A stretch of DNA of 54,071 nucleotides from a virus (IMGVR_UViG_3300025773_000002:1-54071), one strand, 5' to 3'. Positions 10,058 to 17,632 are shown, counted from the stretch's first letter. Notes: generated by a model from the sequence alone, not told the origin. Numbers and translations are program-made.

Positions 10058-11983
10058 ATGGAATATAACGGATTGGTTTTGGATGCACCAAAAGACACAA
10101 CATATGGCATCCCATATTTAGAGACTGTTCCACAGTTTGTTCGTGAGCTTTCTTGCTATGCATTAACCCGTGGAGAGTTTGGAAGGATACAAAGGATTAA
10201 ACGAGGCATTAGAATTGAGGATACTGACCTTAAAAATCCTGCTCAACATATGGTTAATTGCTTTAACCTTATTTATGGCAACGATGTGTTACTCCATTCG
10301 CAAGGAATCCCGAATAATTATGCCCTAGACATCATTGATTTGTTCTGCAACGAGAATGATTGGGGAATTGCAGGGTGTGCATCCAGCGGAAAGACGTTTT
10401 CTGTGGCGGCTTGTATCGTGATGGATTGGATTTCAGCTCCCACAGTCACCTCAACATATGTTGCATCTACCTCTTTGGATGCATCTGAAGACCGTTTGTG
10501 GGGTAAAGTTTGCACCCTTTACAGGACGGCAATGCGTAATATTCAAACCCAATACAAGACTGCAACCATTGGAAATCTGGTTGAGTACCGAAGAATGATT
10601 GTTTTTGAGTCGATTGATACTCGTGATACGGAACGAGACTATACAAATGCCATCAAAGCAGTTGCTTTTCCAAAAGGAGGCGAAGGTCAAAAAGCGGTTG
10701 ATAATATGCGGGGTAGGAAAAACGAACGAGTGAGAGTTTTTTTAGATGAATTGGCAGAAATGGATCTGTATTGCCTCAATGTGCGATCAAATTTTACCGC
10801 AGGAAACGATGATGTTTTGTTTGGAGGCATGGCAAACCCATCAAATACGGCAAATAACCCACATACGGAGCTATGCGAACCCGATGATCCTATGGGATGG
10901 GAGTCTGTGAATAGGTACACCAAGAGATGGAAAACCCGTACAGGGGTTGCCTTGCACCTTTCTGGAGAAGAAAGTCCAAATCTTCAAGCTCCAGATGCAG
11001 AAATACCTCCTTTTAAGAACTTTCTGACTTATAAAAAAATGGAGGCAACATTAAAAATATGCTATGGCAATAAAAATGCCCTAGAATATTGGCGAAATGT
11101 TTATGGTTGGTGGCCCGATAACTCTGTAGAACTTACAATTTTATCAAAAGCATTCATTGCTGGATGCGATTTGAACTTTGAACCCGTTTGGAGTGGCAGA
11201 ACTAGGGTTGTTTGCGGATTTGACCCTGCATTTACTGCTGGTGGAGATAGATGTGCGGCATCTTTTTGTCGATTAGGTCAAAATGATACTGGTCGTAACG
11301 TAGGTTTCTATCTCGGAACTAGAGAATATGAGTCTAGCGTAGGTGATGTCTTTGAAGAATCCATAGCAATGCAGTTGGTAAAGGATTGTATTGAGTTCGG
11401 TGTACATCCACGGGACTTTGGATTGGATATATCTGGTGATGGTGGAAAGATGATGAGAGCAATCATCATTGAATGGAGCAAATTCCATCCAGAGGCTATG
11501 TTTGTATTCCCGATTTCCTCGATGGGTATGCCAACAGAGCGTAGGATCAGCAATCTTGATAAGCGTACTTGCAAAGAAGCATACGATAGATTGGTTACTG
11601 AATATTGGTTTGCTGTTCACACGGCATTCTCCACCAGATCATTGGTTGGTATTGACGTAGATGCCCATTCCAAGGTCGTAAACGAGCTTTGTAGTCGCCT
11701 TTATTACCACAAGGGAAGAAAGGTGGCAGTCGAGAAGAAACTCGACATGAAGCATCGTTTGAAGAAGTCACCCGATTTGGCTGACTCATTGACCTATGCT
11801 GTCCAGATGCTCCGCAGGGCAGGACTTGAATTTGCGTTTGAGGAAGAGACAGTTTCTTTAGACATCCAGGAAATCAGCGATTGGGAAAACCGATTGATCC
11901 ATAGCAAAGGAACTACCCAAGAAAAAATTGAGGATGATGAATGGGGATATGGTGGCAAAGGGACGGATGAAGATGGGTTCTAA
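10058..11983 (+). CDS. terL: Terminase large subunit
   Basis: Walker A GCASSGKT, Walker B VFLDE, GMANP coupling motif, RNase H-like GFDPA..GGD and SPDLADS. Confidence 0.92.
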   Translation: MEYNGLVLDAPKDTTYGIPYLETVPQFVRELSCYALTRGEFGRIQRIKRGIRIEDTDLKNPAQHMVNCFNLIYGNDVLLHSQGIPNNYALDIIDLFCNENDWGIAGCASSGKTFSVAACIVMDWISAPTVTSTYVASTSLDASEDRLWGKVCTLYRTAMRNIQTQYKTATIGNLVEYRRMIVFESIDTRDTERDYTNAIKAVAFPKGGEGQKAVDNMRGRKNERVRVFLDELAEMDLYCLNVRSNFTAGNDDVLFGGMANPSNTANNPHTELCEPDDPMGWESVNRYTKRWKTRTGVALHLSGEESPNLQAPDAEIPPFKNFLTYKKMEATLKICYGNKNALEYWRNVYGWWPDNSVELTILSKAFIAGCDLNFEPVWSGRTRVVCGFDPAFTAGGDRCAASFCRLGQNDTGRNVGFYLGTREYESSVGDVFEESIAMQLVKDCIEFGVHPRDFGLDISGDGGKMMRAIIIEWSKFHPEAMFVFPISSMGMPTERRISNLDKRTCKEAYDRLVTEYWFAVHTAFSTRSLVGIDVDAHSKVVNELCSRLYYHKGRKVAVEKKLDMKHRLKKSPDLADSLTYAVQMLRRAGLEFAFEEETVSLDIQEISDWENRLIHSKGTTQEKIEDDEWGYGGKGTDEDGF

Positions 11984-13983: not shown

Positions 13984-14782
13984 AAAACAAAAGCCAGTTG
14001 GAGCCGTAATTGTCTCTGACCTTCATTGCGGTTCCACGGTTGGTCTTTGGCCTGATGGACATGAAACATCCACGGGTAACAAAATTGGATTAGGCAATAA
14101 TCTCCACCAGCAATGGCTATGGCAATGCTGGCAAGACAAAGATGAGAAGATTAAAACTCACTTCAAAGGTAAGCCATTTGCCTTAATCATCAATGGTGAT
14201 TGTATCGAAGGTAGGCATCATGGATCATCTGAAATCGTTGCCGCATTAAACCTAGATCATACCCTGGCCGCTATTGAGTGTCTACGTCCTCTAGCAAAAT
14301 TAGCCTGTGCAGTTTACATGACTGCTGGAACCGAGTGTCACGTTGGTGATTGGGAAAAGATGATCGCCAAAGAAATAGGTGCTACTTGGCTAGGTGACAA
14401 AGGATTACTAGAAATCAATGGTACACTCATTGATATTGCCCACCATATGCCGACAAGTTCTAGGGCATACCTTGAGGCTGGAGCAATGTCTATAACAATG
14501 GGCAATGCCAGACAGAATTACTCCCGTGTTGGTCATAGGGTTCCAAAAATATATCTACGAGGCCATAGGCACACGGGAGGAATCTTTAATGATGGTGCTG
14601 GAATATTCATGGTGACACCAGCTTGGCAGTTACTTACAAGATATGCCCACAAAGTTGTAGGAGATGCGATATGCCGTCCAGGTGTGGGAATACTGGATTG
14701 GAGTGGATGTGACAAAGGAGAACTACCAGCAACCAAAATCATTTCGTATGAACCGAAAGAAAATACACCCATCAGAAGCTGA
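13976..14782 (+). CDS. Calcineurin-like metallophosphoesterase
   Basis: SDLH, NGDCIEG, GTECH, HH and GHRH motifs. Confidence 0.85.
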   Translation: MTKKQKPVGAVIVSDLHCGSTVGLWPDGHETSTGNKIGLGNNLHQQWLWQCWQDKDEKIKTHFKGKPFALIINGDCIEGRHHGSSEIVAALNLDHTLAAIECLRPLAKLACAVYMTAGTECHVGDWEKMIAKEIGATWLGDKGLLEINGTLIDIAHHMPTSSRAYLEAGAMSITMGNARQNYSRVGHRVPKIYLRGHRHTGGIFNDGAGIFMVTPAWQLLTRYAHKVVGDAICRPGVGILDWSGCDKGELPATKIISYEPKENTPIRS

Positions 14783-15047
14783 TCTACGAGAGAGCATTAT
14801 TAAATGTGCGGTTGATCTAATCAACACACCTACAAGAGATGAAGTATCTTATGGTGAATGGTTTTCTGTTAAAGACCTTGCAGGAAAAGTAACCTTTGGA
14901 AAAGATGCTATCCGTAGGAAATTAAGAAAACGAGTGGAATTGGGAGAGGTGGAAGAAAAGATCCAAAAGTGTAGGGTAGGTAATGCAGTCGTATCGTTAA
15001 GTCTATTCCGAATAATTCCCCAAGATGAAATTGCCCGTCCGTATTAA
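14748..15047 (+). CDS. Putative winged-HTH protein
   Basis: FSVKDLA..GKDAIRRKLRKRVELGEV pattern. Confidence 0.55.
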   Translation: MNRKKIHPSEADLRESIIKCAVDLINTPTRDEVSYGEWFSVKDLAGKVTFGKDAIRRKLRKRVELGEVEEKIQKCRVGNAVVSLSLFRIIPQDEIARPY

Positions 15048-15276
15048 GTTGGAAGACAAAAAGCTAGGTAGGGAACGTAACGATGGTCAGGCTATCTTTG
15101 CAGATAAAAAGATAGAAATAGATCCACGCCTATCTACCAAATCCAGACTCAATATAGTTTTACACGAAGGGATACACATCCTTGACCCTAACCTTCCAGA
15201 ACTGAAAGTTAGAGCCTACGCAAATCGTCTATCCGATCTCCTGTGGCGTGACCGCTGGAGACGAATAGAGAAATAA
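15025..15276 (+). CDS. Small zincin-like metallopeptidase
   Basis: IEIDPRL..VLHEGIH..E (HExxH). Confidence 0.7.
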   Translation: MKLPVRIKLEDKKLGRERNDGQAIFADKKIEIDPRLSTKSRLNIVLHEGIHILDPNLPELKVRAYANRLSDLLWRDRWRRIEK

Positions 15277-15474
15277 TTAGGCGTATTCTAAAATACCCTT
15301 GGAATGATGTGCAATAAGTTGGAGGATAGCCTTCCCCTCTTCAGTAGCAACATGACCCGTCCCTTGGCACTTCCAGCAGGGTTCCCCCAAACCTTCATCG
15401 TACCAATCGGTTCCTGTACCACCGCACTCATCACACGCCTTCTCAAGAGCATTCTTGTTGAATAGGTGTTTCAT
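15277..15474 (-). CDS. Anti-TRAP (RtpA)-like DnaJ-type zinc-finger protein
   Basis: LEKACDECGGTG..PCWKCQGTG..TEEGKAILQLI follows the anti-TRAP layout. Confidence 0.7.
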   Translation of the reverse strand: MKHLFNKNALEKACDECGGTGTDWYDEGLGEPCWKCQGTGHVATEEGKAILQLIAHHSKGILEYA

Positions 15475-15529
15475 AGAATCTCACCACTAGACGAATTTTT
15501 TCTAAACACAAGACTTTTTTTATTTATAA

Positions 15530-15754
15530 ATGAAACAACAAAAAGAAGCGTATGAGAAAGCCAAAGAATTGGCACTGAAGGGTGAAGACTTCAGTATCCT
15601 GGTAGGCATCATAGATCCAGAACAAAGGATGAGGCTCCGAGCATTCGTTTTGAACTTGCCAGAGGAGTTAGCAAAGAAGACAATCTACGGAAGAGTACAA
15701 CTCTCACAGCAACCAGTAACCAAGAAATCCAGAGGCAGACCACGCAAATTATAG
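15530..15754 (+). CDS. Hypothetical protein with C-terminal AT-hook
   Basis: KKSRGRPRK. Confidence 0.65.
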   Translation: MKQQKEAYEKAKELALKGEDFSILVGIIDPEQRMRLRAFVLNLPEELAKKTIYGRVQLSQQPVTKKSRGRPRKL

Positions 15755-15787
15755 GGAGTTTAGGAAATTTAGGGAGTTTACAAATGT

Positions 15788-15815
15788 TTGACACTTTTTG
15801 ATAAATGCATAGGAT
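15788..15815 (+). promoter_or_regulatory. Sigma70-like promoter of ncRNA B
   Basis: TTGACA-16-TAGGAT, preceded by 9-bp periodic repeats at 15752-15787. Confidence 0.55.
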
Positions 15816-15822
15816 TTGTATC

Positions 15823-16010
15823 AATAGAACTCATCAAGCCTCTACTAGTTATCAAAACACATTAATGTGGCACTAGCTAGAAAGCTCAAACAGATGAGTC
15901 TTATTTCGGGGGAGGCATTGAGGGGGGTTTTATCAACTTATAGCGTCATGCGTATCCGTTCTGGGTGTTGATAGAATTTAGCGACCTGAACCTCCTCCGA
16001 CCTTTTTTTC
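15823..16010 (+). ncRNA. Candidate structured ncRNA B (about 188 nt)
   Basis: Two closed domains (15823-15905 and 15906-16000) followed by a U-tract; starts at the predicted +1. Confidence 0.6.
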
Positions 16011-16047
16011 TTGTCATTGAATCAGCTTGGGTTTTTGATTGAGCTTC

Positions 16048-16329
16048 ATGAATACATCAACCACCAACACCACACCAACTCCTAGGACGGATGAGTCTTG
16101 CGAGGCAATGGGCTTAAAAGCCTTTGTAGTGCCAGTAGAAATCTCCCGCCAGCTAGAGCGCGAACTCGCCGAGAAATCCAACGAAGTCGAGAGGCTCCGT
16201 GAGGAAAACTCCGAACTAAAACAAGGAAAGGTCTTTGTCGATCCCAAGTGGATCTACGACCTAGAAACCCAATTAGCCAAAGCCCATGAAGAACTCTGCC
16301 AAGCAGGGTTGAGGGAATACGGCAACTAA
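16048..16329 (+). CDS. Hypothetical coiled-coil protein
   Basis: TPRTD..SRQLERELAE motif common in phage small ORFs. Confidence 0.65.
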   Translation: MNTSTTNTTPTPRTDESCEAMGLKAFVVPVEISRQLERELAEKSNEVERLREENSELKQGKVFVDPKWIYDLETQLAKAHEELCQAGLREYGN

Positions 16330-16338
16330 CAGAGTAAT

Positions 16339-16620
16339 CTGTTAAAAAAACCGCTACATATTTTTAACAGCTACCACTCAAAAGTAGTGTTCCTGCTTAC
16401 TACACAGGAGTAGTGTAGTGATCACGCTACATATCCCTCAATTGTGTAGCAGATCGTAGACATCTGTAAAATGTTCATGATCGCAGACACCTGATTATTC
16501 ACCGCATTATACCTGATTGGGTATTATTCATGAGTTATAAATCACAATTATCACCGCAAGGGTATATTGTCATGTCGATTAATCTTTGTTTTCTGTACAT
16601 GAGCGTATGCATATGTACAC
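16339..16620. repeat. Array of diverse short imperfect palindromes
   Basis: About eight to nine back-to-back inverted repeats of different sequence. Confidence 0.6.
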
Positions 16621-16682
16621 AACATAAACATAAGAACCCCCTTTTGCACTTGCTCACAGACAGAGGTGTGGGGGCAAAATTC

Positions 16683-16928
16683 TTATAGTCCCTTAATCAT
16701 ATCCCTATCCCAATCCGATAGCCTAGAATCTTCTATCTTCTCCTTCAATGCCTTGCTCAATCTCTCCCTCTCCAATTTCATGCCACCATACCCCCCAGGA
16801 GAACTATCCGAATCCAACTCCAACTCATTAGCCAGACTCCTCAATAGCATTATGCTCGGCCTATTCCTCTCACTAGGTGGGTATCTCAATGTCATCGTGT
16901 CCAACGGTACTCCCCATCCCATATTCAT
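16683..16928 (-). CDS. Hypothetical protein
   Basis: 81-aa ORF with purine-rich coding-like strand bias. Confidence 0.45.
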   Translation of the reverse strand: MNMGWGVPLDTMTLRYPPSERNRPSIMLLRSLANELELDSDSSPGGYGGMKLERERLSKALKEKIEDSRLSDWDRDMIKGL

Positions 16929-17077
16929 GTCAAGTCTAGGTTATTGTAAAAGAAACTAAAAGGGAGAGAAGTTCCCAGATATAGGTTTTTTTTCATTGGG
17001 GCATGTCGCACATACGCGCCCAATATATAGGTGTGTGTACCCCCTCCCACCTCCCGAAGAGATTCCCTTGGGAGATC

Positions 17078-17632
17078 CTAGGGTGTAGCGTCCACTATCT
17101 CCGCGTCGATTACCGGCGAGACCGGCAACGCCGGCGAAGGAACCGGCAGTGCCGGTGATGACGGGCTGAAGAACTGAACAAGGAAAGAAAACGGGTTGAC
17201 TTGATCGGCTCCCACCTTGTCACTCCAATTATCACCTGCCATATTATTATCGGTTCGTATTGCTTCAATCTTTGACACTAACTTAACTTTCCTTTTAACA
17301 TTGCCATGCTGATCGACTTCCTCCGCATATTCTTGGCATAGTGGAGAATCTGCGTTGACCTGGGAGGGACTATATCGAACTACGTTGGCGAGGAAAGCAC
17401 GTTTTTCCTCTAGGGAGAGAGAATCTTTAAGGAATGCTTTCCTTTTCAGCTTGGTAACATAGTCTGCGACTCGTTCAGTCTTCAGCATTCTGCACCCTAG
17501 AGATCCATAGTCTTCAGATCGACCGCTTTTTACCTGGTAGCCAGCCCGTCGAACACTTTCGGCGATGCTCATTCCCTTGGTGACATGATTCTCAACGAAT
17601 CTCTTTTGTTTAGTTGTTAATGTTTTGTACAT
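17078..17632 (-). CDS. terS: Terminase small subunit
   Basis: N-terminal LTTKQKRFV..ESVRRAGY HTH typical of TerS, followed by helical oligomerisation region. Confidence 0.75.
   Translation of the reverse strand: MYKTLTTKQKRFVENHVTKGMSIAESVRRAGYQVKSGRSEDYGSLGCRMLKTERVADYVTKLKRKAFLKDSLSLEEKRAFLANVVRYSPSQVNADSPLCQEYAEEVDQHGNVKRKVKLVSKIEAIRTDNNMAGDNWSDKVGADQVNPFSFLVQFFSPSSPALPVPSPALPVSPVIDAEIVDATP

Follow-up and report, generated by a model that had tools for sequence, protein, structure and literature searches.

The window, by which we mean the whole 54,071-nucleotide stretch of viral DNA that was analysed, represents all or much of a phage genome. It carries a small terminase gene and a large-terminase-like ORF, with tail-collar, ERF and Cas4-like nuclease domains elsewhere, and no tRNA gene was found in it. 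Window DNA is present in 24 sequencing runs, all of them freshwater DNA metagenomes, and the 50,697 phage records of INPHARED yielded neither DNA matching 15760-16040 nor a protein matching the terminase-like ORF. Roughly 1 kb from the small terminase gene, between two short ORFs, lies a candidate RNA gene with two structured domains. The main features are as follows.

10058-11983: large-terminase-like ORF
Upstream of the RNA: flanking ORF of 74 aa
15747-15782, plus strand: tandem 18-nt repeat of TAGGGAGTTTAGG-type units (family D2 of the repeat search), directly 5' of the -35 box
15788-15815, plus strand: sigma-70-type promoter, TTGACA (15788-15793), a 16-nt spacer and TAGGAT (15810-15815)
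15823-15835 and 15893-15905, plus strand: domain 1 helix, AATAGAACTCATC with GATGAGTCTTATT, enclosing CTAGT/ACTAG and CACAT/ATGTG stems
15906-15915 and 15991-16000, plus strand: domain 2 closing helix, TCGGGGGAGG with CCTCCTCCGA, enclosing TTTTATCAAC/GTTGATAGAA
16003-16009, plus strand: U-tract (seven T), two bases 3' of stem P1 of domain 2 and, with P1, the presumed intrinsic terminator
16039-16329: downstream flanking ORF of 96 aa
17078-17632, minus strand: small terminase gene

The promoter, helices, inner stems and run of seven T that the initial annotation described are all present, and its prediction of a self-contained RNA gene is supported by the promoter, the covarying structure and the U-tract. 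Minimum-free-energy (MFE) folding of the plus strand yields both domains at -54.8 kcal/mol (z = -2.89), and 2 of 200 shuffles fold equally well; the minus strand folds more weakly (-46.6 kcal/mol, z = -2.11). The structure exceeds chance, and each domain is found again, with covarying pairs, in further viral contigs; covariation was one of the checks originally proposed. The accompanying statement that no plus-strand ORF covers the RNA was nearly right: a 34-aa ORF starting with GTG lies inside it (15867-15971), and we rejected it as coding because comparison with a 94.8%-identical relative, L061, gives 0 synonymous and 4 non-synonymous changes. Repeats linking the RNA to nearby sequence (I3, I5 and D4) were treated as chance, and there was no evidence in favour of self-cleavage.

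The promoter is the top site of the promoter scan, with 10 of 12 consensus matches and a predicted +1 at about 15822-15823. Promoter-like sites number 12 in the interval 14500-17500, against 5.8 +/- 2.0 in shuffles. Three to four units of 18-nt repeat also precede the promoter in relatives L190, L191 and L031, and the tandem repeat may be a UP-like or regulator-binding element. Across about 25 related loci, the segment 15760-15820 is 83-97% identical irrespective of which RNA lies downstream, and relatives diverge immediately 3' of TAGGATTTGTA, the predicted +1. Taken together with the 3' end (15979-16040), identity in these loci is 83-100%, and the middle differs.

By its sequence and predicted pairing, the first of the two domains is an expanded abiF-motif hairpin of the RF03085 kind, a motif that serves as type III RNA antitoxin to the HEPN toxin AbiF (Abi_2). 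The initial annotation had not recognised the family of the RNA. This still holds for domain 2, which matches nothing in Rfam 15, and does not hold for domain 1, for which the cmscan proposed at the time returns RF03085. The parts of the hairpin are these.

15823-15905, plus strand: long hairpin of domain 1 in the MFE fold, with a lower stem (15823-15827/15901-15905) and an abiF-type outer stem (15829-15835/15893-15899)
15830-15899, plus strand: abiF-motif match (RF03085), with outer stem CUCAUC/GAUGAG, a bulged A, inner stem AGC/GCU, CCUCU and 3' internal loop CAAACA
15844-15883, plus strand: apical-loop insertion of 40 nt, holding the CTAGT/ACTAG and CACAT/ATGTG stems; the most variable part

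A permissive Rfam scan covering 15500-16300 gave one meaningful match, to RF03085, at 28 bits against a gathering score of 37 (E 0.0098) and spanning model positions 1-37 of 37. The shortfall in score accompanies the 40 inserted apical nucleotides, where the consensus has 7. Every part of the hairpin plan is found in the window, namely the outer stem, one bulged base, the 3-bp inner stem and the 6-nt 3' internal loop, with all pairs formed, and the same plan is visible in the alignment of bacterial and phage copies described below (A7). The conserved A-AGCCUCU ... GCUCAAA stretch (AAGCCUCU...GCUCAAA) is identical to the consensus in the window copy and occurs once in the 54-kb window, counting either strand.

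Comparison with close relatives separates a fixed core from a drifting insertion. The window and L061 differ at 13 positions in 248 nt, none of which falls in the abiF core (15830-15843 and 15884-15899). Six lie in the apical insertion, where they weaken predicted pairs rather than compensate for them. In the lower stem, 15827 G>T together with 15901 T>A turns a G.U pair into U-A, a compensatory change. The conserved abiF nucleotides are unchanged in both L061 and L064.

Copies of the motif occur in other phages, some of them without the expansion. L011/L010 carry a hairpin of normal size downstream of the same promoter and between the same flanks, and this hairpin scores 40.9 bits (cut-off 37); the copy in L142 reaches 41.9 bits. 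Searching 148 related viral records with RF03085 gave 19 with a match at E <= 1, 3 of them above the cut-off, and inspection led us to accept 11 records as holding real copies (G015, G001, G002, G120, G005, G003, G004, G040, G041, G114 and G147). The matches in G053, G049, G011, G012, G032, G054, G109 and G140, and second matches in G040 and G041, were discarded: they score at most 22.7 bits and are either without the inner motif or located in sequence that looks coding. None of 14 control genomes had any match.

We turned to bacteria for copies associated with Abi_2 genes. The bacterial order sampled, which is relevant to freshwater and contains a Polaromonas MAG, is a convenience sample rather than an inferred host group because that MAG was reached via a chance pattern match. 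Abi_2 genes are present in 26 of its 401 sampled genomes, and Abi_2 accompanied by abiF-type RNA exists there. Among the first 20 loci, 5 have an RF03085 match immediately 5' of the Abi_2 gene (4 over the cut-off). Each of these linked copies is preceded within a few bases by a promoter of its own and followed by a U-run. Copies carrying insertions fall below the RF03085 cut-off or are missed; apical insertions of about 20-35 nt are found in the Abi_2-linked bacterial copies L226, L229, L227, L225, L240 and L241. We also used R2, a model built from 6 bacterial (Abi_2-linked) and 3 phage copies. It places a hairpin directly 5' of the Abi_2 gene, on the same strand, in 12 of 31 Abi_2 loci, and finds the window copy at 15827-15902 with 29.8 bits (E 2.4e-5).

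Phage and bacterial copies share both pairing and unpaired nucleotides. Alignment A7 brings together 12 copies from bacteria and 8 from phages. Pairing is intact in 97.0% of its cells, and both partners vary in 8 of 9 pairs; 0 of 500 shuffles score as high and slid controls pair at 24-45%. The values favour the structure in that A7 was fitted to R2, for which 9 of the 20 rows had served as input. An alignment of 9 copies made by MAFFT only still pairs in 95.1% of cells, with 5 of 9 pairs changed on both sides. The apical loop CAACGAU is the same in phage L011, bacterial L215/L223 and the Rfam consensus, and a ACGCCUCU...GCGCACC subtype is common to phage copies L192/L207 and bacterial Abi_2-linked copies. 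Genome G462 holds two long Abi_2 paralogues whose leaders share CUCAU-A-(C/A)AGCCUCUACUAG with the window. A short-word blastn of the regions upstream of 30 Abi_2 genes against the phage cassettes gave only matches of 14-22 nt (E 0.002-0.04), which we took as chance. We do not regard the sub-threshold score of the window hairpin as a false match, because syntenic copies pass the cut-off, Abi_2-linked antitoxins resemble it and its pairs covary.

AbiF is a widespread abortive-infection toxin, and to our knowledge its RNA antitoxin has so far been described beside the toxin. The window departs from that arrangement. None of its 59 ORFs matches Abi_2 (PF07751) in Pfam at E <= 0.01, and PADLOC, run on the same 59, matched no AbiD/F-type model. 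An HMM of 23 Abi_2 proteins, searched in six frames with filters off over all stop-to-stop frames of at least 40 aa, gave a best window E of 2.2 (23 of the 23 proteins recover themselves). Both flanking ORFs lack the R-x4-6-H motif of HEPN proteins. Nor was Abi_2 found in five related viral records holding the hairpin, most of which are fragments. We call the domain 1 antitoxin an orphan because no Abi_2 gene was found in the window, and, since none lies downstream on the same strand, the locus is described as carrying an AbiF RNA rather than classed as an AbiF system. The early suggestion of an antitoxin-mimic RNA is apt for the 5' domain in view of the abiF match and the missing Abi_2 gene, with the function itself inferred; for the sponge proposed alongside it there was no evidence in favour.

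We considered whether the phage might own a type III toxin-antitoxin or superinfection-exclusion system whose toxin is too divergent to detect or encoded elsewhere. Prophages are known to carry AbiF systems, phi027 of C. difficile being an example (PMC12373285), and Pfam and the Abi_2 HMM can miss remote HEPN proteins. Against this, the hairpin sits directly upstream of a same-strand Abi_2 gene in the 12 bacterial R2 loci, whereas its window neighbours encode 74-aa and 96-aa proteins devoid of R-x4-6-H; six frames give no Abi_2 signal; and the flanking genes vary among phages with the same RNA. We give hardly any credence to this explanation.

Domain 2 follows at once and constitutes an RNA family new to Rfam, with clear covariation. 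Its layout is as follows.

15906-16000, plus strand: domain 2, with P1 (15907-15915/15991-15999), a CA bulge (15916-15917) and P1b (15918-15923/15985-15990)
15924 and 15980-15984, plus strand: core of domain 2, an asymmetric loop of G15924 versus AGCGA, next to P1b with its G.G mismatch
15925 to 15979, plus strand: P2, with a variable apex

At gathering score, Rfam 15 gave 0 matches in the window, and over 15906-16000 at E <= 10 it gave only noise. Rfam searches of 6 and 14 related loci likewise matched neither domain 2 nor M_GGGGATC, a module that often precedes it, nor the other modules. Likenesses to K-turn, T-box, Y-RNA and retron structures were dropped because none of them fits the pairing pattern. 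Using the pattern GGCAWTGAGGG-N30-60-AGCGACCTGA, we found 94 matching stretches in IMG/VR, corresponding to 65 unique sequences. The same pattern matched 21 stretches in a 596-Gb genome collection, of which 2, both on MAG contigs, are real; the other 19 lack the closing helix and were judged by inspection to be chance.

RNAalifold analysis of the 65 unique sequences (alignment A2) gives a P1 of 9-10 bp and a P1b of 5 Watson-Crick pairs around the G.G mismatch. Across the alignment 91.3% of cells are paired and 9 of 16 pairs change on both sides, with 0 of 500 shuffles as high. P1 covaries strongly: at the pair adjoining the bulge, 35 sequences have A-U, 29 have U-A and L033 has G-C. The base of P2 also covaries (G-C in 28, C-G in 22, U-A in 7 and A-U in 5), and its apex exists in at least ten unrelated versions among the 65 sequences. 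Invariance of the core columns is not independent evidence, because those columns were fixed by the search pattern. The covariance model R1 finds the window domain as its one match there (74.2 bits, 15904-16009). It adds further copies that are only slightly divergent (L071, L030/L031 and L033) and has 0 matches in 151 genomes of the sampled bacterial order.

P1 presumably serves as the terminator stem, because 57 of the 65 unique members keep a run of at least four T within 10 nt after it. The stem is GC-rich, with 9-10 pairs, and encloses 75 structured nucleotides, which is why a terminator scan makes no call at this position.

Might domain 2 itself be a decoy or inhibitor of another RNA-binding host factor, making the transcript a double decoy? 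Its conserved asymmetric core of CA bulge, G.G mismatch and AGCGA loop is framed by covarying helices, its matches are nearly all viral (the two real ones from the genome collection, out of 21, being on MAG contigs), and it is linked to other presumed counter-defence cargo. However, domain 2 has no bacterial counterpart by R1 in the 151 genomes of one order and no Rfam family, and the invariance of its core is partly circular. We consider a double decoy distinctly unlikely.

What lies between the conserved promoter and domain 2 differs from phage to phage. The long abiF hairpin stands behind the promoter in the window, L059/L061 and L064, and the short hairpin followed by M_GGGGATC as a second module in L010/L011. 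Elsewhere the same position is taken by M_GGGGATC alone (L012/L013 and L030/L031); by an atypical tRNA-Trp-like gene with M_GGGGATC (L016/L032 and L065), the gene being called by ARAGORN and not by the Rfam tRNA model at gathering; by other unknown modules (L029, L019-L021 and L071); by domain 2 alone (L067, L069 and L074); or by none of these RNA modules (L056-L058, L060 and L062). Short AU-rich linkers (UAUUU, UAUAAU) separate the modules. We surveyed what precedes domain 2 in 73 unique contexts.

Same-strand tRNA gene within 450 nt upstream: 34 of 73
tRNA-Trp among the tRNA contexts: 22 of 73
M_GGGGATC within 130 nt upstream: 32 of 73
AAGCC-type abiF hairpin upstream: 5 of 73
Promoter directly before domain 2: 7 of 73

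Clustering the ORFs around these 73 contexts revealed no single conserved protein partner, the largest clusters being spurious frames over RNA or promoter repeats, which we set aside. These surroundings bear on a cis-acting role, in which the RNA would be an attenuator- or riboswitch-like leader controlling read-through into the 96-aa gene (16039-16329). The RNA does sit between a promoter and this ORF, which begins ~40 nt past the U-tract, and passages of PMC12373285 report that bacterial abiF RNAs also act in cis via premature termination. However, when loci were fetched via relatives of the 96-aa ORF, domain 2 lay within the 3-kb flank in only 14 of 55; near-identical RNAs in L059/L061 and L064 precede different sequence; and domain 2 terminates a tRNA array in many contigs while keeping no single partner gene in the 73 contexts. 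We give little credence to such a leader.

The same survey bears on another alternative, which takes domain 2 for the functional RNA and the abiF-like hairpin for only one of several interchangeable 5' hairpins unrelated to AbiF, for example a 5'-end protection or processing signal in a phage stable-RNA or tRNA transcript. Domain 2 alone behind a promoter (7 of 73), its usual position after tRNA genes and M_GGGGATC, and the AU-rich linkers between modules would all suit such a transcript. Yet the hairpin retains the unpaired nucleotides of the antitoxin (CCUCU, the bulged A and CAAAC), which goes beyond a mere stem, and these recur together with the loop CAACGAU upstream of bacterial Abi_2 genes. 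A mere stabiliser would have no reason to keep unpaired bases, which are invariant between the window and L061 while the insertion drifts. We regard this alternative as unlikely.

Weighing these observations, we propose that the locus encodes a phage decoy RNA directed against AbiF and stabilised by a cap at its 3' end, a reading to which we assign a probability of about 0.5; among the roles considered, the RNA most likely disarms AbiF defence. Host RNA polymerase would transcribe a two-domain non-coding RNA of ~188 nt from the near-consensus sigma-70 promoter, and P1 with the seven U would end the transcript. Domain 1 would offer the same protein-facing bases as the host AbiF antitoxin, so that a hairpin abundant early in infection could bind host AbiF in trans. 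AbiF would then stay inhibited when host transcription or antitoxin supply collapses, and infection would not be aborted. Domain 2 would act as a stable, possibly protein-bound 3' cap for whichever RNA cargo precedes it.

Several observations count against the decoy reading. The window copy lies under the Rfam gathering score, and the 40-nt apical insertion could impair AbiF binding. In the 3' loop, position five is C in the window and U in the Rfam consensus; passages of PMC12737573 name C32 and U38 of a single-stranded bulge as the inhibitory bases. The abiF hairpin precedes domain 2 in just the 5 contexts listed above, and only 26 of the 401 genomes of the sampled order have Abi_2.

Known AbiF RNAs provide the closest comparison. 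[quoted passage not shown] AbiFr RNA is described as blocking the HEPN active site of AbiF (passages of PMC12737573 and PMC13064643), a toxin presented in the former as an evolutionary precursor of Cas13. The window hairpin is like these RF03085 RNAs in its 6-7-bp outer stem, bulged A, 3-bp inner stem, CCUCU and 6-nt 3' loop starting CA, as well as in being preceded within a few bases by a sigma-70 promoter of its own and followed by U-rich sequence. It differs in that no Abi_2 gene was found in the window, in its 40-nt apical insertion, in its single motif copy where RCd22 has two, and in being fused to a second, unrelated structured domain within a phage RNA island.

Inhibition of AbiF by a phage RNA has a precedent, because PMC13064643, in a passage citing Rince 2000 and Zilberzwige-Tal 2025, reports AbiF inhibition by a hairpin from the cos region of lactococcal phage sk1. 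Like the window RNA it is phage-borne and near the packaging region; the sk1 hairpin is reportedly unlike the AbiF non-coding RNA, whereas the window hairpin clearly resembles it. Phage PhiTE similarly escapes ToxIN through an RNA antitoxin mimic, pseudo-ToxI (PMC3475682). The two cases are alike in that a phage RNA resembles a host type III antitoxin, lacks a toxin partner and is expected to neutralise in trans: the window RNA resembles a host antitoxin, and no toxin was found in the phage window. ToxI differs in being a tandem 36-nt repeat processed by ToxN, with another fold and toxin family. The PhiTE mimics, moreover, were seen as laboratory escape mutants, while the window RNA occurs naturally as a gene in single copy that has a promoter of its own and is common to several environmental phages. 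Racr RNA anti-CRISPRs (PMC10651486) are likewise stand-alone RNA genes of viruses mimicking the RNA partner of a nuclease used in defence, although they copy CRISPR repeats and act on Cas complexes rather than on a toxin-antitoxin pair. For domain 2 the nearest parallels are GOLLD and ROOL (passages of PMC5737381), structured RNAs that also occur beside phage tRNA genes, as domain 2 does in 34 of its 73 contexts; they are several hundred nucleotides long with their own Rfam models, and domain 2, at ~95 nt, matches neither. In the full-text literature searched, and in the main text of the 2017 paper that defined the motif, we came across no account of phages carrying the abiF motif in the absence of the toxin, although an earlier mention elsewhere is possible.

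It has been proposed that tRNAs encoded by phages replace those host tRNAs that defence nucleases cleave (PMC10264068), and for this reason the company of the hairpin fits a counter-defence island. We tentatively extend the argument to the cassette as a whole, as a possibility that we consider less likely than not: it may be a natural, recombining 'RNA anti-defence slot', in which RNA cargoes are exchanged among freshwater phages downstream of a single conserved early promoter, some perhaps mimicking the RNA partners of other defence nucleases, and all capped by one new RNA domain.

If the decoy reading is true, this antitoxin-only phage gene with its strong promoter would be a naturally evolved RNA inhibitor of AbiF, parallel to pseudo-ToxI and to RNA anti-CRISPRs. 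It would also provide a reagent for testing directly whether a 70-nt RNA can turn off nucleases of the AbiF family when supplied in trans. With it comes a second RNA family, so far uncatalogued, represented by 94 viral stretches with clear covariation, and the swappable cassette suggests that synteny can reveal non-coding counter-defence genes. Should the idea of a shared slot be true, domain 2 would represent a new class of functional viral RNA, for instance a nuclease-resistant or protein-recruiting 3' cap, and phages would possess, in orphan antitoxin RNAs, a general class of counter-defence genes that has gone unrecognised.

Immediately 5' of domain 2, the phage RNA family without a catalogue entry, we found a second conserved RNA module of ~60-70 nt in 32 of the 73 unique contexts compared. 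This module, M_GGGGATC, is missing from the window and returned no match in an Rfam search. Its first hairpin carries GGAUCUUCGGUGAA enclosed by GUGG/CCAC, GCGG/CCGC or CCGG/CCGG, and its second pairs CUGAU with GUUGG around a GAAA loop and varies in length. The slot behind the promoter can also be filled by a gene that resembles tRNA-Trp(CCA) and whose CCA end is encoded. ARAGORN calls this gene, the Rfam tRNA model scores it below gathering, and its top Rfam match is tRNA-Sec (27.6 bits). The product may be a tRNA of atypical or decoy type. Both elements recur across related loci (L-numbered).

L013:2140-2210; L032:2545-2610; 30 other contexts: M_GGGGATC
L032:2464-2540; L065:1669-1744; 20 other contexts: tRNA-Trp(CCA)-like gene (ARAGORN)

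Further features flank the RNA locus within the window itself.

15277-15474, minus strand: 65-aa zinc-ribbon ORF, Pfam Anti-TRAP (PF15777), 38.2 bits against a cut-off of 32
15747-15787: tandem TAGGGAGTT-type repeats, directly 5' of the -35 box
16339-16370: palindrome CTGTTAAAAA...TTTTTAACAG

The tandem units number three to four in relatives; in the RNA promoter they could bind a regulator or act like an UP element. The zinc-ribbon ORF probably encodes no more than a zinc finger of the DnaJ type. This ORF adjoins an RNA island that in relatives contains tRNA-Trp-like genes, and an Anti-TRAP match in such a position is a curious coincidence with tryptophan-tRNA biology.

Downstream of the RNA, the 96-aa ORF contains ACGGATGAGTCTT followed by GAGGCAATGGG (16087-16115). 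These two recall, and keep in order, the abiF hairpin's 3' stem (15890-15902) and the first part of the core of domain 2; the likeness reflects chance or else a scar left by recombination. The ~750 nt that separate the 96-aa gene from the small terminase gene (16330-17078) hold no convincing ORF and abound in short repeats, including TACCACTCAAAAGTAGTGT and TACTACACAGGAGTAGTGT spaced 26 nt apart, two copies of CGCTACATAT and the palindrome listed above. Relatives L062 and L063 conserve this stretch, which might serve as a packaging site or an origin, or might consist of additional RNA genes.

Hairpins resembling the abiF motif also occur in other settings.

L206 (138-kb record G120), about 130415-130452: abiF-like hairpin, 34.7 bits, inner stem CGC/GCG
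L240:1096-1170 and L241 (minus strand), bacterial genome G462: expanded abiF-like leaders

In the large phage, tRNA genes immediately follow the hairpin and domain 2 is absent; the hairpin therefore also moves with ordinary phage tRNA arrays. The bacterial genome has six Abi_2 matches, among them a pair of long paralogues (472 aa and 483 aa) in which the Pfam match is broken into two parts. Each is preceded by one of the expanded leaders, which neither the Rfam abiF model RF03085 nor R2, our covariance model from Abi_2-linked and phage copies, detected. These long paralogues may form an AbiF subfamily not described before, one whose RNA partner is larger.
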